DNA of 64,000 nucleotides from Eledone cirrhosa (Eukaryota), in contig CAXHJY010001173.1 in the NCBI GenBank assembly GCA_964016885.1, positions 124,001 to 188,000 on the forward strand, read 5' to 3'. Below the pieces are notes generated by a model. The model saw only the letters and a program-made list of their open reading frames with translations, made no database searches and was not told the origin of the DNA. The position numbers and the translations under genes are program-made. Shown in pieces: positions 1-62,696 of the stretch; position 1 is the first letter of the stretch; each line of letters starts with the position of its first letter.

Positions 1-1002
1 TACAGAGTTAACTATAGTATTTTTAACGGATCTGGGTGATTAGAGTTAAAATTGACGTAATTTAAGTTCTCATTTAGTTTGTGAAATGGATAATGAAGAC
101 ATGTGTTAAGATTTAGTGTTATATCTAGAAAATTAACAATTTTATGGTTATTCTCTATTTCTACTTTTAGATTAAGGTAATTAAAAAATTGTATAATTTG
201 TTTTCTTTTTCTATTTAGTTCACAGTTATTATTTTCTATAAGTAAAAGCATGTCGTCACGATATAAACCTCCGGTTATCTCAGGTATTTTTCTATGTAGA
301 GAATTAATTATAAATAGGCCCACAAGATCCGTTATCTTAGCGGAATCGGATGATCCCATAGTTATGTCGAAATTATTATTTCTATCTGCCCTAGTCCAGA
401 GTTGGTTATTAAATTCTATTAATGTTTTCCGTGCCGATAATATAATGTGCATTTCATTGCTAGTTAGGTCTGTATGTTTAAATGCGTAAGTTAGTGCCTT
501 ATTCAGTAGATTAGGAGTGATAGATGAGTAATAGTTAGCAATATCCAACTGAATAAACTTATTATTATAGTTATATTTAATTTCTTTAAACCAATCGATA
601 ACTTCACTAGTTCCTTTCCATAATTTTAAATAAGATAAATTCTTAATTTGTGGTATTATTCTGTCTAGAATATTTTTGCTAAGTCTGCCAAGGTCCGATT
701 TAGATGGTGCAATTAATCTGACTGGTAAATCAGTTTCGAAGTTCCTTTTATGATCCTTCATATTAATCTTAGGTTTCCTTGGCATGAAGGGTTGTGTCCT
801 ATTTTCAATGCCTAGTTCATGCATTATATAAGAGGCATCTGTATTCAAATTTTCAAGGTCGTCTTTATTTGCTACTTTGTATTTCTTCCTTAATTCCTTT
901 AATATAAGATCGTTATAATTGTCCTTTTGTATTCCGTAAAGATTATTGGTTTTGTCAGACTTGACTAGAATTTTCTCCGTTTTTTCCAAGTTTTCAATAT
1001 TA

Positions 1003-1008
<6 letters not shown>
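1..1008 (-). mobile_element. Penelope-like retroelement (PLE) reverse transcriptase fragment, YRDD type, frameshifted near position 30 and running off the window
   Basis: Motifs KSDKTNNLY, MKDHKRNF..RLIAPSKSDLG, QLDIANYYSSI, FDITMGSSDSA, GGLYRDD, VNFLDITL, SNHP. After NHP the plausible continuation (RSVKNTIVNSV) is in a shifted frame. Confidence 0.9.
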
Positions 1009-1085
<77 letters not shown>

Positions 1086-1089
<4 letters not shown>

Positions 1090-1540
1090 AAAGTTCTATT
1101 TAGATTGTTGGGATACAACAAGCAAATATTTTTATAACTGATATAAAGCACTCGACAAGTATTTGGAGTAAATATACGATATTAACAAATGGAAACTATA
1201 TTTATAAAACCATATCTATTTCATTATACATATTTCAAGGATACCATGTTAAATTATGGTATGCTTTCATCAGACAAAATACAATATATACCAGTTTTAT
1301 AAATAAATATTGACATACCCTTTCAAAATGCAACCGTTACTTTTGGAAGATATCACTATCCCTGATGTCTTCCAAAAGTAACGGTTGCATTTTGAAAGGG
1401 TATGTCAATATTTATTTATAAAACTGGTATATATTGTATTTTGTCTGATGAAAGCATACCATAATTTAACATGGTATCCTTGAAATATGTATAATGAAAT
1501 AGATATGGTTTTATAAATATAGTTTCCATTTGTTAATATC

Positions 1541-6794: not shown

Positions 6795-7340
6795 TATTCT
6801 TCTCCCCATTTTTTCACATATATTTACCTAAACTGCGATTCTGTTTTTCTCTCTCTCTCTCTCTCTCTTACTGCTCCCTCGTTCTCTCTGTTTCTCCTAC
6901 TTTCTTTCGCCCCCTCTGTCATGTCAGTTAACTCTTCCTCACACTTCCACTCATTCACTCACTGTTTCTCCCCTTCTCACTTCACCCCGTTCGCGACGAA
7001 TACATTTTCCTTCTTTCTTACATTTGGATTCATCTCGAAAGGTCTTTTTTCTAAGCGCTCATATATTCACCTAGCTTATGCTAACAGAATAACTATGTAG
7101 CTTGTTCCCTTCCTCTCTACGGTTAGCTTTCCTCTTTGTTGTTTACTTGTCTCACTCGCTTTACGCGTTTTAATTGTCCTAATAACTTAATTTAGTTATT
7201 ATTGCACCGACGTGAGGTATATGATTTTTAATGCAATGAAATATCTATGATCGTCGGCAAATCACTGATGAGGGACTCATTTTATAACATGTTATCCATG
7301 TGCAACCTGCAGTATTCTTCTCCCCATTTTTTCACATATA
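6795..7340 (+). mobile_element. Family F element with direct terminal repeat, kink-turn hairpin (7207-7257) and degenerate hammerhead (core 7265-7271)
   Basis: TATTCTTCTCCCCATTTTTTCACATATA at both ends; colinear with 35050-35605. Confidence 0.75.
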
Positions 7341-7351
7341 TATATATATAC

Positions 7352-9783: not shown

Positions 9784-10031
9784 ATTCAAAATATTAACAA
9801 AATAGATATTCTTGTGATCAAATATATTTTATTATACATATTTCAGAGGTACTGATTTAAGTTCAACAGTACGTCCTCATCAGATAAAATAAGATGATGC
9901 ATGACATAACCTGACATAGTAGATGGTTAATATTTTGAATTAATATTAATAACTCTGGAAACCCTTTTTCCTGTTGATTGCTTCCAATCTATTGTAAAAC
10001 TCATTCTTTGATGTATTCATTGAACCTTGTT

Positions 10032-13839: not shown

Positions 13840-14070
13840 GCCCGGGCAAATATCCCCTCAATTTAGCGAACCGTCAGCGTTGTCCAGAACTGAGAAGAAA
13901 AGACCTGACGGTCTAACTCTTGTGCTCCTGGTCAAGAGGCAGGTGTCTTACCTGGGACGACACAGTTAGTGACTCTTTAGCTTTTTCCCACATCCTGGAT
14001 GCAGCGAGAGCTACAGCATCCACAGCTGAACAGAACAAAATCCTAAAATACCCTGATCTGTCAGATGTAT
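13840..14070 (+). mobile_element. CRE-like non-LTR retrotransposon restriction-like endonuclease fragment
   Basis: EPSALSRTEKKRPDGLTL / SWSRGRCLTWDDTVSDSLA..ASTAEQNKILKYPDL, frameshifted. Confidence 0.78.
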
Positions 14071-17000
14071 GTATTACCTTCTTGTGTGTTGTATGTGGTC
14101 CTAGATGTGTGTATTACCTGCTTGTGTGTTGTATGTGGTCCTAGATGTATGTATTACCTGCTTGTGTGTTGTATGTGATCCTAGATGTGTGTATTACCTT
14201 CTTGTGTGTTGTATGTGATCCTAGATGTGTGTATTACCTTCTTGTGTGTTGTATGTGGTCCTAGATATATGTATTACCTTCTTGTGTGTTGTATGTGATC
14301 CTAGATGTGTGTATTACCTGCTTGTGTGTTGTATGTTGTCCTAGATGTGTGTATTACCTGCTTGTGTGTTGTATGTGGTTCTAGATGTATGTATTACCTG
14401 CTTGTGTGTTGTATGTGATCCTAGATGTGTGTATTACCTGCTTGTGTGTTGTATGTGATCCTAGATGTGTGTATTACCTGCTTGTGTGTTGTATGTGGTC
14501 CTAGATGTATGTATTACCTTCTTGTGTGTTGTATGTGGTTCTAGATGTGTGTATTACCTGCTTGTGTGTTGTATGTGATCCTAGATGTGTGTATTACCTG
14601 CTTGTGTGTTGTATGTGGTCCTAGATGTATCTATTACCTTCTTGTGTGTTGTATGTGGTTCTAGATGTGTGTATTACCTGCTTGTGTGTTGTATGTGGTC
14701 CTAGATGTGTGTATTACCTTCTTGTGTGTTGTATGTGATCCTAGATGTATGTATTACCTTCTTGTGTGTTGTATGTGGTCCTAGATATATGTATTACCTG
14801 CTTGTGTGTTGTATGTGGTCCTAGATGTGTGTATTACCTTCTTGTGTGTTGTATGTGGACCTAGTCATGTGTATTACATGCTTGTGTGTTGTATGTGGTC
14901 CTAGATGTGTGTATTACCTGCTTGTGGGTTGTATGTGGTCCTAGATATATGTATTACCTGCTTGTGTGTTGTATGTGGTCCTAGATGTGTGTATTACCTG
15001 TTTGTGTGTTGTATGTGGGCCTAGATATATGTATTACCTGCTTGTGTGTTGTATGTGATCCTAGATGTATGTATTACCTTCTTGTGTGTTGTATGTGATC
15101 CTAGATGTATGTATTACCTGCTTGTGTGTTGTATGTGGTCCTAGATGTATGTATTACCTGCTTGTGTGTTGTATGTGGTCCTAGATGTATGTATTACCTG
15201 CTTGTGTGTTGTATGTGGTCCTAGATGTATGTATTACCTGCTTGTCTGTTGTATGTAGTCCTAGATATATGTATTACCTTCTTGTGTGTTGTATGTGGTC
15301 CTAGATATATGTATTACCTGCTTGTGTGTTGTATGTGGTCCTAGATATATGTATTACCTTCTTGTGTGTTGTATGTGGTCCTAGATATATGTATTACCTG
15401 CTTGTGTGTTGTATGTAGTCCTAGATGTATGTATTACCTGCTTGTGTGTTGTATGTGGTTCTAGATGTGTGTATTACCTGCTTGTGTGTTGTATGTGGTC
15501 CTAGATGTGTGTATTACCTTCTTGTGTGTTGTATGTGATCCTAGATGTATGTATTACCTTCTTGTGTGTTGTATGTGGTCCTAGATATATGTATTACCTG
15601 CTTGTGTGTTGTATGTGGTCCTAGATATATGTATTACCTTCTTGTGTGTTGTATGTGGTCCTAGATATATGTATTACCTGCTTGTGTGTTGTATGTAGTC
15701 CTAGATGTATGTATTACCTGCTTGTGTGATGTATGTGGTCCTAGATGTATGTATTACCTGCTTGTGTGTTGTATGTGGTCCTAGATGTATGTATTACCTG
15801 CTTGTCTGTTGTATGTGGTCCTAGATGTATGTATTACCTGCTTGTGTGTTGTATGTGGGCCTAGATGTATGTATTACCTGCTTGTGTGTTGTATGTGGTC
15901 CTAGATGTATGTATTAACTCCTTGTGTGTTGTATGTGGTCCTAGATGTATGCATCATGTATTACCTGATTGTGTGATGTATGTGGTCCAAGATGTATGTA
16001 TTACCTGCTTGTGGGTTGTATGGGGTGGTAGATGGATTATTACCTGATTGTGTGATGTATCTGGTCCTAGATGTATGTATTACCTGATTGTGTGATGTAT
16101 GTGGTCCTAGATGTATGTATTACCTGCTTGTGTGTTGTATGTGGTCCTAGATGTGTGTATTACTTGCTTGTGTGTTGTATGTGGTCCTAGATGTATGTAT
16201 TACCTGCTTGTCTGTTGTATGTGGTCCTAGATGTATGCATTAACTGCTTGTGTGTTGTATGTAGTCCTAGATATATGCATTAACTGCTTGTGTGTTGTAT
16301 GTGGTTCTAGATGTATGTATTACCTGATTGTATGATGTATGTGGTCCTAGATGTATGCATCATGTATTACCTGATTGTGTGATGTATGTGGTCCAAGATG
16401 TATGTATTACCTGCTTGTGGGTTGTATGGGGTGGTAGATGGATTATTACCTGATTGTGTGATGTATGTGGTCCTAGATGTATGTATTACCTGCTTGTGTG
16501 TTGTATGTGGTCGTAGATGTGTGCATTACCTGCTTGTGTGTTGCATGTGGTCCTAGATGTGTGTATTACTTGCTTGTGTGTTGTATGTGGGCCTAGATGT
16601 ATGTATTACCTGCTTGTGTGTTGTATGTGGTCCTAGATGTGTGTATTACCTTCTTGTGTGTTGTATGTGGACCTAGTCATGTGTATTACATGCTTGTGTG
16701 TTGTATGTGGTCCTAGATGTGTGTATTACCTGCTTGTGGGTTGTATGTGGTCCTAGATATATGTATTAGCTGCTTGTGTGTTGTATGTGGTCCTAGATGT
16801 GTGTATTACCAGCTTGTGTGTTGTATGTGGGCCTAGATGTGTGTATTACTGGCTTGTGTGTTGTATGTGGTCCTAAATGTATGTATTACCTTCTTGTGCG
16901 TTGTATGTGATCCTAGATGTATGTATTACATGCTTGTGTGATGTATGTGGTCCTAGATGTATGTATTACATGCTTGTGTGATGTATGTGGTCCTAGACGT

Positions 17001-17340
17001 GTGTATTACCTGCTTGTGTGTTTATGTGATCCTAGACGTGTGTATTACCTGCTTGTGTGTTGTATGTGGTCCTAGATGTATGTATTACCTACTTGTGTGT
17101 TGTACGTGATCCTAGATGTATGTATTACCCAGTTGTGTGTCTTATGTGGCCCTAGATGTGTGTATTACCTGCTTGTGTGATGTATCTGGTCTTAGATGTG
17201 TGTATTACCTGCTTGTGTGATGTATGTGGTCCTAGATGTGAGTATTACCTGCTTGTGTGTTGGATGTTGTCCTAGATGTGTGTATTACCTGCTTGTGTGT
17301 CGTATGTGGTCCTAGATGTGTGTATTACCTACTTGTGTGT
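14062..17340. repeat. 40-bp minisatellite, about 82 copies
   Basis: Unit CTAGATGT(G/A)TGTATTACCTGCTTGTGTGTTGTATGTGGTC. Confidence 0.97.
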
Positions 17341-29300: not shown

Positions 29301-30212
29301 TCGTCAGACATACCACCATCAAGAACGTTCTCCATACACGCTCCTACCACAGTGCAGACTGTGAAACAGACCACTCCTTGGTGTGTTGCAAGATCAGGCT
29401 GCAACCGAGAAGATTTCATTGAGTCAATCCTTGATTTGATGTCAGCAAGATGTACCAACCAGAACTTGAAATGCAATTCATAGAGACTCTCAGGAAAGAG
29501 CTTCACACCTCTCAACCCGGGGACCCTGCCACAGATAAGTGGGAAATGCTGCGAAATATCATGCACAGCACAGCCTTGGCTACCTTTGGAAAGAGGGTTT
29601 CGAAGTCACATAACTGGTTTGAGGCCAAGTCCATCAGGATGATCCTTGTCATTGAAGCCAAGTGTGCTTCCCTAGCTAGTACAAACGATCGCCCAGCAAA
29701 AGGAACCCACAGATTCTCAGGGCTGCCAGAAGCAAGGTTCAACAGACTGCAAGGCACTGAGCTAATGAGTACTGGACACAGCTCAGTGAGGACATCCAGA
29801 CAGCTGCCGTAACAAGGAACATCAGAGGCATGTATGATGGCATGAAGAAGGCACTGGGACCGGTTCAGAGCAAGACAGCTCCCCTGAAACCCAACACTGG
29901 GGAAGTAATCCCTGACTGGGGCCAGCAGATAGAGAGATGGCCTTACAGCTGACCGGCCAAGATGGGAACACCCTGAATCAATGGCTCAAATCAGGGGAGG
30001 AGTGTTTGATGACTGCAACAGTAGACAGGAGAGCCCAGTGAAAGGAGCGCTATAGATCCAACAGACCAGAGACCATATACTGATGTGTTCAATGTGACAG
30101 AGACTGTCACCCACATATAGGTCTGTTTAGCCATCGGAGACACTACCCCAGCTGAGCTGACAACAGGATACTACCCATGGTCAGCCTTGATCAAAGGAGG
30201 CCTTAACTGAAC
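26340..30212 (+). mobile_element. RTE-clade LINE, internally deleted (no RT), with a minisatellite in its presumed 5' UTR
   Basis: APE motifs SIYAPT..KDRFYE..LLGDFN, SWRHPRSKHWHQLDLIL, SADCETDHSLV (about 28990-29410). Jumps after QQIERW (about 29940) to the C-terminal CVQCDRDCHPHIGLFSHRRH zinc finger. The 5' boundary is inferred. Confidence 0.85.
26555..28655. repeat. Modular minisatellite of 22-nt and 18-nt blocks (40-bp main period)
   Basis: A=TGCAYCACTCRTCAACACAACC and B=TGCACCATAYTTCTAYGC, arranged as AB, ABB and AA. Confidence 0.96.
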
Positions 30213-30249
30213 CTGTCATGTGAATTCCTTAACCATAATCCCATGTCTC

Positions 30250-32990
30250 TATCATCAGATCAGACGAAAGAAACAATGTTTCTATTGGTCTTTCTATTAC
30301 TGATACAATCTGTCAGTCACAACTCCTGACAGAAGAAAGGAGCTGATCATCAGATCAAACCAAAGAAACAATGTTTCTATTGGTCTTTCCATTACTGATA
30401 CTATCTGTCAGTCACAACTCCTGGCAGAAGAAAGGAGCTGATCATCAGATCAGACCAATGAAACAATGTTTCTATTGGTCTTTCTATTACTGATACTATC
30501 TGTCAGTCACAACTCCTGGCAGTAGAAAGGAGCTGATCATCAGATCAGACCAATGAAACAATGTTTCTATTGGTCTTTCTATTACTGATACTATCTGTCA
30601 GTCACAACTCCTGGCAGAAGAAAGGAGCTGATCATCAGATCAGACCAAAGAAACAATGTTTCCATTGGTCTTTCCATTACTGATACTATCTGTCAGTCAC
30701 AACTCCTGACAGAAGAAAGGAGCTGATCATCAGATCAGACCAAAGAAACAATATTTCTATTGGTCTTTCCATTACTGATACTATCTGTCAGTCACAACTC
30801 CTGGCAGAAGAAAGGAGCTGATCATCAGATCAGACCAAAGAAACAATGTTTCCATTGGTCTTTCCATTACTGATACTATCTGTCAGTCACAACTCCTGAC
30901 AGAAGAAAGGAGCTGATCATCAGATCAGACCAAAGAAACAATATTTCCATTGGTCTTTCTATTACTGATACTATCTGTCAGTCACAACTCCTGGCAGAAG
31001 AAAGGAGCTGATCATCAGATCAGACCAATGAAACAATGTTTCTATTGGTCTTTCTATTACTGATACTATCTGTCAGTCACAACTCCTGGCAGAAGAAAGG
31101 AGCTGATCATCAGATCAGACCAATGAAACAATGTTTCTATTGGTCTTTCTATTACTGATACTATCTGTCAGTCACAACTCCTGGCAGTAGAAAGGAGCTG
31201 ATCATCAGATCAGACCAATGAAACAATGTTTCTATTGGTCTTTCTATTACTGATACTATCTGTCAGTCACAACTCCTGGCAGAAGAAAGGAGCTGATCAT
31301 CAGATCAGACCAAAGAAACAATGTTTCCATTGGTCTTTCCATTACTGATACTATCTGTCAGTCACAACTCCTGACAGAAGAAAGGAGCTGATCATCAGAT
31401 CAGACCAAAGAAACAATATTTCTATTGGTCTTTCTATTACTGATACTATCTGTCAGTCACAACTCCTGGCAGAAGAAAGGAGCTGATCATCAGATCAAAC
31501 CAAAGAAACAATGTTTCTATTGGTATTTCCATTACTGATACTATCTGTCAGTCACATCTCCTGACAGAAGAAAGGAGCTGATCATCAGATCAGACCAAAG
31601 AAACAATATTTCTATTGGTCTTTCTATTACTGATACTATCTGTCAGTCACAACTCCTGGCAGAAGAAAGGAGCTGATCATCAGATCAGACCAAAGAAACA
31701 ATGTTTCCATTGGTCTTTCCATTACTGATACTATCTGTCAGTCACAACTCCTGACAGAAGAAAGGAGCTGATCATCAGATCAGACCAAAGAAACAATATT
31801 TCTATTGGTCTTTCCATTACTGATACTATCTGTCAGTCACAACTCCTGGCAGAAGAAAGGAGCTGATCATCAGATCAAACCAAAGAAACAATGTTTCTAT
31901 TGGTATTTCCATTACTGATACTATCTGTCAGTCACAACACCTGGCAGTAGAAAGGAACTGATCATCAGATCAGACCAAGGAAACAATGTTTCTATTGGTC
32001 TTTCCATTACTGATACTATCTGTCAGTCACAACTCCTGGCAGTAGAAAGGAGCTGATCATCAGATCAAACCAAAGAAACAATGTTTCTATTGGTCTTTCC
32101 ATTACTGATACTATCTGTCAGTCACAACTCCTGGCAGTAGAAAGGAGCTGATCATCAGATCAGACCAAAGAAACAATGTTTCTATTAGTCTTTCCATTAC
32201 TGATACTATCTGTCAGTCACAACTCCTGGCAGTAGAAAGGAGTTCATCATCAGATCAGACCAAAGAAACAATGTTTCTATTGGTCTTTCCATTACTGATA
32301 CAATCTGTCAGTCACAACTCCTGACAGAAGAAAGGAGCTGATCATCAGATCAGACCAAAGAAACAATGTTTCCATTGGTCTTTCCATTGTTGATACTATC
32401 TGTCAGTCACAACTCCTGGCAGAAGAAAGGAGCTGATCATCAGATCAGACCAAAGAAACAATGTTTCCATTGGTCTTTCCATTACTGATACTATCTGTCA
32501 GCACAACTCCTGGCAGAAGAAAGGAGCTGATCATCAGATCAAACCAAAGAAACAATGTTTCTATTGGTCTTTCCATTACTGATACTATCTGTCAGTCACA
32601 ACTACTGGCAGTAGAAAGGAGCTGATCATCAGATCAGACCAAAGAAACAATGTTTCTATTGGTATTTCCATTACTGATACTATCTGTCAGTCACAACTCC
32701 TGGCAGTAGAAAGGAGCTGATCATCAGATCAGACCAAAGAAACAATGTTTCTATTGGTCTTTCCATTACTGATACTATCTGTCAGTCACAGCACCTGGCA
32801 GAAGAAAGGAGCTGATCATCAGATCAGACCAAAGAAACAATGTTTCTATTGGTCTTTCCATTACTGATACTATCTGTCAGTCACAACTTCTGGCAGTAGA
32901 AAGGAGCTGATCATCAGATCAAACCAAAGAAACAATGTTTCTATTGGTCTTTCCATTACTGATACTATCTGTCAGTCAACTCCTGACAGA
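30250..32990. repeat. 95-bp tandem satellite, about 29 copies
   Basis: ATCATCAGATCAGACCAAAGAAACAATG... starts at 30441 and again at 30536. Confidence 0.97.
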
Positions 32991-35049: not shown

Positions 35050-35605
35050 TTTTCTTCTCATGTTTTTTTATATATATTTACCTCAGCTGCGTCTGTCTGT
35101 TTCTCCTCTTACTGCTTCCCCGCTCTCTCTGTTTCTCTCACCTTCTTTCGCCCCCTCTGTCAGTTACACTTCCTCTCGACTGACCGCTTCCTCGCACTTC
35201 CACTCACTCACTCTCTGTTTCTCCCCTTCTCACTTCCTCCCGTTTGGCTAACAGTGGGTCTCTTCTTGCTTACATCTCACACACATCGACACGATCTGTA
35301 CCTCTCTCGCTCATGAAATCCACCCAGCTTATGCTGACCAGGACAACCATATTGCTTGTTTATTTTCCTATCTTCGGTTTGCTTTTATCCTTCTATGTTG
35401 TTTACTTGTCCCCCTCGCCTTACGCGAATTACTGGCCCCAATAACTTTTTTTAGTTATTGCTCGCACCAACCTGAGGTATCTGATTTTTAATGCGATGAA
35501 ATACCAATGATGGTTGGAAAATCACTGACGAAGGACTATTTTTATCATATGTAACCCATGTGCAAACCACACAGTATTCTTCTTTCTTCTCATGTTTTAT
35601 ATATC
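35050..35605 (+). mobile_element. Family F copy with kink-turn hairpin (35467-35517) and CTGACGA core (35525-35531)
   Basis: Colinear with 6795-7340; TTTCTTCTCATGTTTT at both ends. Confidence 0.75.
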
Positions 35606-40224: not shown

Positions 40225-41030
40225 GATTAAAGTTTAAGCAAATAATCTCTGCTTTCACCCTTTTATTATTATTACTATTTGGCGCCTTCGGTTGAGCATT
40301 CTTTAGACTTTGAACCAATATGCAAAAACATCTTAATATTTCTACGAAAATTATTCTAAACCTACCAGGAAGACGAATTTAAAAATACTCATTCAAAAGA
40401 CAGATTCATTCCTTAAAAGCATACGTTGGCGCGCCTTCTATTTCGACAACCATGATAAGTTTGATTTTAAAACATACAATAACATTCCTAGCCACCCAGC
40501 TTTGTTACCTTTCGAAAACGAAGTACTGGAACTCATACGGAGAATCAAATTTCGAAACAGAAACAATTCCTTCCAACATGACTTGAAGAATAGAATTCGA
40601 CTGATAAAGGATTCTAATGCAATGCATGTCCACTCTGACAAAACTGGTAATCTATACCAAGTAGAGAGGAGAACTTGCCATGAACTGCTACATAACGCTG
40701 TGACCAAGGATTACCGACAAACTGATCGGAGTGTTATTAACGGCATATACGACGCTGATTTAAAAATTACTTCAGAACTTAACATCAATGACCGGACTGA
40801 ACCTCTGGACCCTATTTCTCTTAATTTTACTCTCAAGGATCATAAACCAAATTTCGTTAACAACCCATCTATTTGGCTTATTAACCCTACTAAATCTGAT
40901 TTATGTAGACTTAGTGAAATAAATTGTATAGAACTTTCTTGTATTACAGCCCCACATTATATCCTAATGGATAGTACGGACAATACACGGATAATATACG
41001 TCATGATGTGGTAGCTAAGAATACTCTAAC
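40225..41030 (+). mobile_element. YRDD-type PLE deletion derivative: N-terminal region joined directly to the 3' end
   Basis: IRWRAFYF..LLPFENE..HSDKTGNLY..TLKDHKPNF..LINPTKSDL, then from about 40915 sequence matching 2625-2735. Confidence 0.85.
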
Positions 41031-55233: not shown

Positions 55234-56491
55234 CAGGGGTTGGACAAAATAATGGAAACACCTAACATCATAGCATCATAATTTTGAAATATCTATAAAA
55301 CCATCAAAAGCTTGTTTATTTTTATGTTTTTTGATTTATTATTAGTGTTGCTTAATAAGTTTTGTTAAAATTGCTGTTTCTTTTCAGATATCATCAGAAA
55401 AAGGTAATTAAAATTCATTAAAATGACAGATCTATCGGACTTTCAAAGAGGTCAAATTGTTGGTGCTCGTATGGCAGGCGCTAGCGTAACAAAAACAACC
55501 GAAATGTTTGGTGTATCAAGAAGTACTGTCTCGAAAGTAATGACAGCCTTTGAGAAAGAGGGAAAAACCTCCTCATCGAAACAAATCTCCAGAAGAAAAC
55601 CAAAACTTTCAGATAGGGACCGTTGGACTCTTACGCGAATTGTTAGAAAGGATCACAAAAGTACAGCTCCCAAAATTACTGCAGAGCTTAATGACCACCT
55701 CGAGAACCCAGTTTCCACAAAAAAGCCGGATTTCACGGGAGGGCTGCAATCAGAAAACCACTACTTTCAAAAACAAACATTGCAAAGCATTTAGAGTGGA
55801 GTAAAAACCTACAGAATTGGTCCCTAGAGCAGTGGAAGAATGTTATTTTCTTGGACGAGTCATCCTTTACCATATTTCCGACCACCGGCCGAGTATACGT
55901 GTGGAGACGGCCAAAAGAAGTATTTGACCCAGACTGCCTTCTTCCAACTGTTACACATGGAGGAAGATCTGTGATGATCGGGGGGGGGGGGGCTATATCT
56001 TGGAAATCCGCCGGCCCAATGGTTTCCCTGCATGGCAGAATTAATAGTCAAGACTATTTAAGCATTTTATCTGATCAAATTCATCCTATGGTTGTGGAAC
56101 TGTTTCCGGAGAGAAACGCAATCTTTCAGGATGATAATGCACCAATTCACACAGCTAAAGTTGTTACTGAATGGCACGAGGAACATTCTAGTAAAGTTGA
56201 ACATCTTATCTGGCCACCTCAGTCCCCAGATCTCAATATTATTGAACATTTATGGTGCATTTTAGAAAAACAAGTAAGGAATCGATATCCTCCACCATCA
56301 TCACTACAAGAACTAGAGACTGTTTTAGCTGAAGAATGGACAAAAAATTCCTTTGGAAACAATTCAAACTTTGTACGAGTCCATACCTCGTAGAATTCAA
56401 ACTGTAATTACTGCCAAAGGCGGTCCTACCCCATATTAAAATAAATTTGTTTGAAATTTTAAGGTGTTACCATTATTTTGTCCAACCCCTG
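55234..56491 (+). mobile_element. Tc1-like DNA transposon, full length (1258 bp)
   Basis: TA flanks; 30-bp TIRs CAGGGGTTGGACAAAATAATGG(A/T)AACACCT with one mismatch. Confidence 0.96.
55423..56439 (+). pseudogene. Tc1-family transposase, DD36E spacing, frameshifted near 55720 and 56345
   Basis: N-terminal HTH region, AIRKPLL, IFLDES, FQDDNAPIH, WPPQSPDLNIIEHLW, GGPTPY-stop. Confidence 0.93.
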
Positions 56492-61877: not shown

Positions 61878-62696
61878 CATAGTTATGTAATAAACAACAT
61901 AAGGCAATTATTCCATTTACCAGTGGTTTCTTAAAAGCAAAAAATGTTGCTTTCAATCCTCAGAATGAAAAAATCCTGGTCTATGTATGTGTGGTCTATG
62001 TATATCCTGTTTATGTATGTGTGTATGGCTATGTATGTGTATGTGTATGCATGTATATATATATATTTATATTTATATATATATATATGTGTGTGTGGTT
62101 GTATATATGTATGTGTATGTATGGATGTGTTGATATTTATGTGCGTATGTATGTAAGTGTATATGTATGTGTATGTGTGTATTTATATACATGTGTATAT
62201 GTGAGTGTGTATGTATGAGTGTATGTATATATATATATATATATATATATGTAAATATGATAATAATGGAGCTGCGGCGCTGCAAATGGGTTACATATGA
62301 AAAAGTTTGTCCTCATCAGTGGCCTTCCAACCGTCGTAGGCATTTCGTCGCATGTGTGTGTATGTATGCTTTTTTGTGTGTGTGTGTGTGTGTGTTTGCG
62401 TGTGTAGTTTTATTTTATTTTTCCTTTCCTTCTTCCTTCTCCAGCCTCACTTTCATATAGATTGCATTTTTGTTTTTAAAATCCAAATTCAATAAACAGA
62501 CCAGGATTTTTTCATTCTGAGGATTGAAAGCAAAATCTTTTGCTTTTAAGAAACCACTGGTAAATGGAATAATTGCCTTATGTTGTTTATTACATAACTA
62601 TTAAGCTCTGTTGCCTACATAGAGCACTCTTTTTTCCTAGACTTTTCCGATGGAATTACTTCATATATATATATACATATACATATACATATATAC

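Follow-up and report, generated by a model that had tools for sequence, protein, structure and literature searches.

A predicted hammerhead ribozyme with rearranged blocks and a k-turn in a (TA)n-flanked repeat family of Eledone cirrhosa

Why should a hairpin of the kink-turn (k-turn) type stand immediately before a hammerhead core in a dispersed repeat? The question is raised by a 64,000-nucleotide stretch of Eledone cirrhosa DNA (hereafter the window), in which the original prediction placed a double k-turn hairpin directly upstream of a CUGAYGA core in two copies of a repeat, family F. Both 51-nt hairpin strings (7207-7257 and 35467-35517) are present as quoted, with eight differences between them, and the 7-nt spacer between hairpin and CUGAYGA was verified in both copies. 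The picture of a hairpin lying upstream of a separate hammerhead did not survive analysis, however, as the hairpin itself supplies stem III, the cleavage site, GAA and a strand of stem I. Read in this way, positions 7176-7276 carry every conserved hammerhead base, in a scrambled order, and the RNA is predicted to cleave itself at 7221/7222 as a monomer, with the k-turn acting as a hinge (probability about 0.6). That a rewired hammerhead fold is present and works in one mode or another is quite probable. The features are collected in Table 1.

Table 1. Family F copies and the parts of the predicted ribozyme, in window coordinates.
Feature	Position	Strand	Remarks
Family F copy 1	6795..7341	+	518-nt non-coding unit plus 29-nt terminal redundancy, flanked by (TA)n runs
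5' terminal repeat copy	6795..6823	+	identical over 29 nt to 7313-7341
Pyrimidine-rich body	6824..7175	+	263 of 356 nt are C or T (counted over 6824-7179)
Stem II partner strand GUCC, ends in C11.1	7176..7179	+	predicted; detached from GAAA; best duplex partner in copy 1
Hairpin V	7180..7201	+	8/8 bp in copies 1 and 2; U-A closing pair replaced by C-G; predicted junction arm
Strand P	7202..7206	+	partner of P' 7232-7236; A7201-U7237 as alternative sixth pair
NC helix 5' strand and non-bulged UGA	7207-7212 and 7213-7215	+	box D-like CUGA in copy 2
Block S	7216..7227	+	stem III 5' strand 7216-7220, position 17 at 7221, stem I 5' strand 7222-7227
UUAA linker and strand P'	7228-7231 and 7232-7237	+	P' lies directly before GAAA
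G12-A13-A14 and stem III 3' strand	7238-7240 and 7241-7245	+	7241-7245 doubles as the C helix of the k-turn
Bulge, G1b-A2b-U3b and NC helix 3' strand	7246-7248, 7249-7251 and 7252-7257	+	
Block C	7259..7276	+	stem I 3' strand 7259-7264, CUGAUGA 7265-7271, extra base 7272, GGAC 7273-7276
Palindrome	7284..7295	+	12 nt in copy 1, 6 nt in copies 2 and 3; possible dimer contact
3' terminal repeat	7313..7341	+	continues into (TA)n
Family F copy 2	35051..35598	+	period 532; ribozyme 35435-35536; position 17 is C35481; CUGACGA at 35525
Family F copy 3	62245..62353	-	5'-truncated; begins at strand P', about 10 nt beyond the predicted cut

Copies 1 and 2 of family F are 74% identical over 540 nt, and the terminal repeat of copy 2 is exact over 16 nt. 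Copy 3, recovered by nhmmer (E 3e-12), has stem I and stem III strands of its own, unlike those of copies 1 and 2; their pairing partners are lost, and the UH strand is missing owing to the truncation. No reading frame common to the copies was seen in the pyrimidine-rich body. In public DNA runs the family is present in high copy: alignments from run X1 number 1433 contigs and those from run X14 3284 reads, 194 of which continue into a TA repeat beyond 7332. Two other organisms contributed 10 and 5 matching contigs. Runs X7-X12 hold a small family share, X8 being the only one aligned among them. Among the 40 of 121 variant rows covered, both copy-1-type and copy-2-type alleles occur at high share, and the lack of core variants among these 40 is weak evidence. 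The earlier description of a retroelement RNA is supported, since family F is a dispersed non-coding unit with a terminal tail repeat, a (TA)n microsatellite target and a 5'-truncated copy.

The window itself is (TA)n-rich and contains remnants of Penelope-like elements that, judged from their sequence, look Hydra-like. One of these is a reverse transcriptase (RT) frame at 12-1181 (-) with the motifs DKT, LWK and YRDD, Hydra-like by the published description (PMC8557442); it adjoins an inverted repeat (1009-1709) in which minimal hammerheads of type I stand at 1273(-) and 1445(+). Another Penelope-like fragment lies at 40337-41014(+). Two RT-like frames gave no Pfam match, and the best hit in a PDB sequence search was a retron RT at E 0.45. 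Minimal hammerhead motifs of type I also occur in short elements flanked by (TA)n, at 9883(-), 44103(+), 43980(-) and 58386(+), of which 9883 and 44103 pass the type I scan; stem II of all four starts with GGAC, the bases of the family F stem II strand. Copy 3 is flanked by an inverted type I-like pair (62517(+)/61963(-)) with the core CUGAGGA, a 7-bp stem I and a 10-12-bp stem II. A tandem array of 95-nt units at about 30200-32950 (-) contains CUGAUGA and two GAAA per unit, and no hammerhead order within it passed the scans; another tandem array, with a period of about 80 nt, spans 14063-17340. The frame at 55695-56393 (+) presumably represents a fragment of a Tc1/mariner DDE transposase.

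Within the hairpin, stem III is formed by GGUAU (7216-7220) and A7241-C7245 (AUAYC), giving 5 bp, and stem I by UGAUUU (7222-7227) and AAAUCA (7259-7264), giving 6-8 bp. The CUGAnGA, GAAA and UH (H not G) parts of the core are complete in copies 1 and 2, with A at position 17 in the former and C in the latter. The blocks run in the order site, GAAA, CUGAnGA (S-G-C) in both copies, which is non-circular and unlike the circular orders CGS, GSC and SCG of types I, II and III. This assignment also changes how the inner part of the hairpin is understood. The supposed k-loop (UGA...UGA-A) has no k-turn geometry in that register and corresponds to the first bases of stem I together with G12-A13-A14, so that there is one k-turn rather than two, and it is built upon hammerhead stem III. 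Likewise, of the three differences among the eight that had been taken as unpaired, 7221 is hammerhead position 17 and 7235 pairs with 7203 in a change affecting both sides.

When both strands of the window were scanned for all block orders, the site-GAAA-core order was found only at copies 1 and 2, and a looser scan added three matches at two unrelated loci, none of them with a k-turn. Dinucleotide shuffles that held the core fixed produced the order in 2 of 20000 trials per copy and the order together with a k-turn in none (0/20000). The 10 differences between the copies over 7207-7271 avoid all 11 core positions and all 7 k-turn positions, leaving the conserved core bases identical, and the free core positions 17 (A/C) and 7 (U/C) both differ. 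Among 200000 random sets of 10 changes, the core and stems I and III survived in 1080, and the k-turn as well in 34. Reading the 518-532-nt unit head-to-tail revealed no conserved alternative set of cleavage site and GAAA for CUGAnGA, and no GAAA lies 3' of CUGAYGA within the unit. Copy 1 does hold one weak alternative in canonical order (4/4/4 bp, GAAA at 7037), for which a counterpart was not found in copy 2. In copy 1 the stability of stem III is low (-0.7 kcal/mol), and within family F no covariation is seen in stem I.

Stem II would be assembled from a distance. A contiguous stem II right before GAAA would have 1 bp only; the strand that precedes GAAA pairs best with the upstream strand P and not with the strand that follows CUGAnGA. 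The predicted stem II partner instead lies 60 nt 5' of GAAA, connected via hairpin V and one more helix, P. In copy 1 the duplex of GGAC (7273-7276) and GUCC (7176-7179) comprises 4 bp at -7.3 kcal/mol; copy 2 retains three of the four pairs, with an A.C mismatch, and has a better partner in a GUCC about 27 nt further upstream. Because the partner strand is detached and joined through a hairpin and a helix, the GAAA block would be split, and a block split in this predicted manner falls outside the six permutations described by Eckert et al. 2023 (PMC10085705). The predicted four-way junction, lying between C11.1 and G12, would bring stem II, hairpin V and helix P together with the core. In copies 1 and 2 alike, P' pairs best with strand P, and the pair U7203-A7235 is C-G in copy 2. 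A first model of stem II, either contiguous or with P' paired to UGCA at 7301-7304, was abandoned because strand P is the better, covarying partner of P'. Strand P (7202-7207) is also the target of a competing pairing with GUGCAA at 7300-7305 (-6.2), which could represent an off or product state.

In the resulting fold there are six helices (II, V, P, NC, III and I) whose ends abut. Of the 68 cells that 34 pairs give in the two full copies, 67 pair, and both-sided changes affect four pairs, as against 22-52% pairing and no both-sided changes in slid controls. These covariation values are equalled by 28 of 500 shuffles (two informative rows), a modest degree of support; the structure was partly derived from the same sequences used to score it, and the covariation reflects few events because the two full copies stand for two subfamilies. 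When the 5' flanks were shuffled, 68 and 53 of 20000 trials contained the II-V-P set. An improbable alternative is that the fold is shaped like a hammerhead and is catalytically silent or very slow, having been kept as a recognition signal for the RT or for a host protein. This would be consistent with the imperfect stem II of copy 2, with the uncut site held by genomic copies, and with a discontinuity at 11.1/G12 that lies outside the permutations so far tested. Against it, the catalytic bases are invariant, and in family F and the Naiad elements parsed below, changes at positions 7 and 17 stay within what cleavage permits, G never being found at 17.

For the outer motif, the claim of k-turn geometry was correct, and the k-turn is a standard one in both copies: a 3-nt bulge (UAU/AAU, U-terminated), tandem G.A/A.G pairs, U.U at 3b.3n and a 6-bp NC helix. 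The compensatory changes that had been reported were also confirmed at 7209/7255 (G-C to A-U) and 7212/7252 (G-C to C-G), as was the replacement of G.U by G-C at 7244. In public runs 7209A and 7255T rise together, with equal depth (8.29) in X5 and, in X14, counts of 182/209 and 371/393 for + mates and 100/297 and 107/438 for - mates. The k-turn bulge of copy 3 ends in C, not U, and this copy has C at L3 and 3b. A U at L3 and U.U at 3b.3n belong to the box C/D consensus. The family F motif shares these, along with the 3-nt bulge, the tandem G.A/A.G pairs and, in copy 2, CUGA and AUGAUG boxes, with box C/D k-turns (PMC5061560), and differs from them in sitting in a ribozyme arm, in lacking a guide or C'/D' pair, and in its box order, which is the reverse of that in guide snoRNAs.

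The position of the k-turn suggests what it may do. At the far end of the NC helix, strand P and the 3' strand of stem I are attached through linkers of 0 and 1 nt; since both pair with the loop at the opposite end, the helix would have to turn back. In a toy geometry, which is rough, the distance from the NC end to the stem I end is 10-16 A for a 50-60-degree kink at the best azimuth, 29-46 A at other azimuths, and 56 A when the helix is straight. Ions by themselves do not fold the k-turns of box C/D and U4 RNAs, but binding of L7Ae does (PMC5061560), so folding here likely needs tertiary pairings or 15.5K/Snu13; it is plausible, by analogy, that the outer k-turn is an L7Ae/Snu13 site.

Other identities for the hairpin were weighed. 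SECIS elements have a GA quartet that opens onto an 11-13-bp apical helix with unpaired AA; this candidate was rejected, as the GA pairs here are oriented toward the hairpin base, 5 bp make up the apical stem and there is no Rfam match. Box C/D snoRNAs carry box C at the 5' end, box D at the 3' end, and a guide sequence. Capture of a fragment of such a snoRNA is the least probable of the explanations considered: the likeness to snR66 in Rfam is weak (18.8 and 22.3 bits, E 4.2 and 0.6, against a gathering score of 65), no window sequence reaches any Rfam gathering score, and matches at E up to 10 are of chance level. Moreover, the D-like box precedes the C-like box with the hammerhead between them, and the octopus Naiads retain the fold with other sequences. 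In the copy-2 type, CUGA (35481-35484) and UGC-GAUG (35492-35498) can be drawn as an inner k-turn within 35481-35499, with a 2-bp stem, which would mask the cut site; the copy-1 type does not offer it. Only slightly less remote than snoRNA capture is a stand-alone double k-turn hairpin that recruits an L7Ae-family protein beside a separate, ordinary hammerhead. The hairpin is indeed the minimum-energy fold and the inner register of the copy-2 type could be an off state, but the unit holds no conserved GAAA or cleavage site elsewhere, the inner register is absent from the copy-1 type (A7221, A7235), which is common in the runs, and 7235 is accounted for by its pairing with 7203.

The Naiad clade of Penelope-like elements offers a comparison. 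The Naiad reading frame comprises an N-terminal GIY-YIG domain, CxC and RT. No Naiad reading-frame motif was found in the 64-kb window. According to Craig et al. 2021, canonical hammerheads are absent from Naiads, for which only the flags 'HHR_core' and 'HHR_half_core' are given, one 'half core' being flagged in Naiad_Ovul (PMC8557442). Their consensus file (PMC8557442 File S5) was searched for core words, and matches were parsed by eye, without computation; the places listed covered 58 of 62 for CTGATGA, 15 of 23 for CTGACGA, 15 of 25 for CTGAGGA and 29 of 43 for CTGAAGA, words split by line ends probably being missed. Its Naiad part, with 54 families, contains at least 19, 14, 9 and 18 places for the four words, respectively. 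Among the places listed, the family F layout was recognized by eye in 9 + 0 + 2 + 0 = 11, each with the sequence of parts II', V, P, return helix, site, P', GAAA, III', return', I', core and II. About 8 of the 11 are independent, because three Acropora and two Octopus places are near duplicates. One of the 11 has a 2-bp stem I and another a weak P, and in several of the 9 non-octopus places the junction has 0 or 1 unpaired base. Complete, textbook type CSG hammerheads were read by eye at 2 + 3 + 1 = 6 of the places listed, all in the nematode section of the Naiad file; that type was described in 2023 from two sequences. At one further listed place the parse by eye gave type SGC, the sole insertion being a hairpin at 11.1/G12. 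No hammerhead was parsed at 8 of the 19 CTGATGA, 10 of the 14 CTGACGA, 6 of the 9 CTGAGGA and all 18 CTGAAGA Naiad places listed.

Two octopus Naiads share the k-turn as well. By eye, the order of parts recurs at the 3' ends of the Naiad_Obim and Naiad_Ovul consensus sequences, where stem III again has 5 bp and the U.U k-turn is kept (UGA with AAU- or AGU-GAU). Their stems I (CUGCCC/GGGCAG) and III (AUGGU/ACCAU), P (GACACC/GGUGUC) and NC (CGGAU/AUCCG) all differ in sequence from those of family F, yet the layout is kept. These are the 2 of the 11 places with a k-turn, the other nine having bulges or a three-way junction. Like the Naiad clade (PMC8557442), family F shows (TA)n insertion, 5' truncation and a terminal repeat that resembles the 30-40-bp 'tail' of Penelope-like elements, and the parses by eye add the ribozyme layout near the 3' end; unlike the Naiads, family F has no reading frame. 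On the RNA layout that the two share, parsed by eye, family F is likely to be a non-autonomous, (TA)n-targeting element of the Naiad type. It is a more tentative suggestion, and a rather doubtful one, that the rewired architecture is the missing ribozyme of many Naiads in ctenophores, cnidarians, arthropods and cephalopods, and that the octopus type closes only when 15.5K (Snu13) folds the k-turn.

Together, these features allow a mechanism to be proposed, its steps following models in PMC7761336, PMC7229834 and PMC8557442. With the four-way junction (II, V, P and core) inserted between C11.1 and G12, the k-turn would serve as a hinge allowing a single molecule to close its active site, a bend of about 50 degrees turning the NC helix back toward stem I, and folding could be aided by tertiary pairings or by host 15.5K/Snu13. 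The ribozyme would most probably cut read-through or tandem transcripts into unit-length RNA, possibly then ligated into a circle, and a Penelope-like RT of the Naiad type would prime at (TA)n near the tail and copy one unit plus about 30 nt. Such a course would account for the redundant ends, for the junction with TA repeat at the 3' end and for the truncation of copy 3. Depth in X1 is about 220-310 thousand over 7217-7311 versus 130-190 thousand over 7141-7216, and this rise past the cut, with the start of copy 3 about 10 nt beyond it, would fit copies templated by cut RNA; contig depth was judged too noisy to count as evidence on this point.

The serious rival to the monomer hinge is dimeric action, in which the same rewired hammerhead is assembled between two copies, as tandem units or as two molecules. 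The II-V-P part, the stem I 3' strand and CUGAnGA of one hairpin would dock on the loop of another, and the k-turn would be a protein site or tuning element and dispensable as a hinge. This is unlikely for family F, though clearly less so than a silent fold. One of the Naiad places has an extension of 10 bp, a 1-nt bulge and 5 bp with 2-nt linkers, and this nearly straight 15-bp arm looks too straight for a monomer, favouring dimeric assembly in at least some Naiads. Penelope-like elements also form tandems, minimal hammerheads have been reported to act as dimers (PMC7761336), the palindrome at 7284-7295 could serve as a contact, and one X8 contig passes from the 3' tail into the start of a unit, its evidence for a tandem junction being a single letter. 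On the other hand, all three window copies are single units, no unit-unit joints were listed in four public runs, and the 5 bp of stem III that precede the k-turn are common to family F and both octopus Naiads, which is what a required angle would predict.

If this reading is true, non-circular hammerheads would extend from metatranscriptome contigs to high-copy animal retroelements. All rearranged ribozymes of Eckert et al. 2023 came from metatranscriptomes, and the three hammerhead blocks were assumed to be uninterruptible (PMC10085705), an assumption that a split GAAA block would break. The same authors placed distal stem III close to the stem I/II side and left this unexplained (PMC10085705); a sharp bend would answer the puzzle. 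Hammerhead-free Naiads have been used to suggest that ribozymes merely parasitise Penelope-like elements (PMC8557442), and this published view of hammerhead-free Naiad spread would need revision; descriptors for types I-III are blind to these block orders. Should the octopus type depend on 15.5K (Snu13) as suggested, it would be a natural hammerhead gated by a host snoRNP/U4 protein. The 100-nt RNA, with its predicted cut site, six mutable helices and box C/D k-turn, makes these ideas directly testable.

A literature search, with subscription journals largely outside its reach, found neither the layout nor a natural hammerhead with a k-turn nor permuted Naiad hammerheads, and the words 'kink' and 'k-turn' occur nowhere in the accessible text and supplement of PMC10085705. 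Hammerheads with extra helices are mentioned in PMC13725137. The family pattern gave three matches in metagenomes, all in unrelated sequence reading as prokaryotic coding DNA, and none in viral or in GTDB contigs. A general site-GAAA-core plus k-turn pattern gave at least 120 loci in viral contigs, and of 123 loci parsed, 2 showed a loose SGC pairing and none a k-turn.

The nearest described relative is type SGC, members of which (HRIMA-1, SGC variant) cleave in vitro (PMC10085705). Family F is like it in the order of site, GAAA and CUGAnGA, in the short linker after the stem I 5' strand, in an optional extra base after A9 and in a pseudoknotted core. In type SGC, a 4-5-bp stem II lies directly before GAAA and a helix flanks block C (PMC10085705), whereas in family F block C begins one base after the NC helix and no helix joins its flanks. 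Family F was not filed as type SGC because both the contiguous stem II and the helix around block C are missing; it also differs in its predicted detached stem II partner, its predicted four-way junction and its k-turn, and its host, an animal genome repeat. Finally, metazoan non-LTR retrozymes, whose mobilisation by Penelope-like elements has been proposed, share with family F a non-coding ribozyme unit of a few hundred bases and a low G+C content (PMC7229834; 10.64898/2026.07.22.740005). Retrozymes carry type I hammerheads in tandem arrays, with circles shown, while the family F copies seen are single units bearing a predicted, permuted ribozyme.
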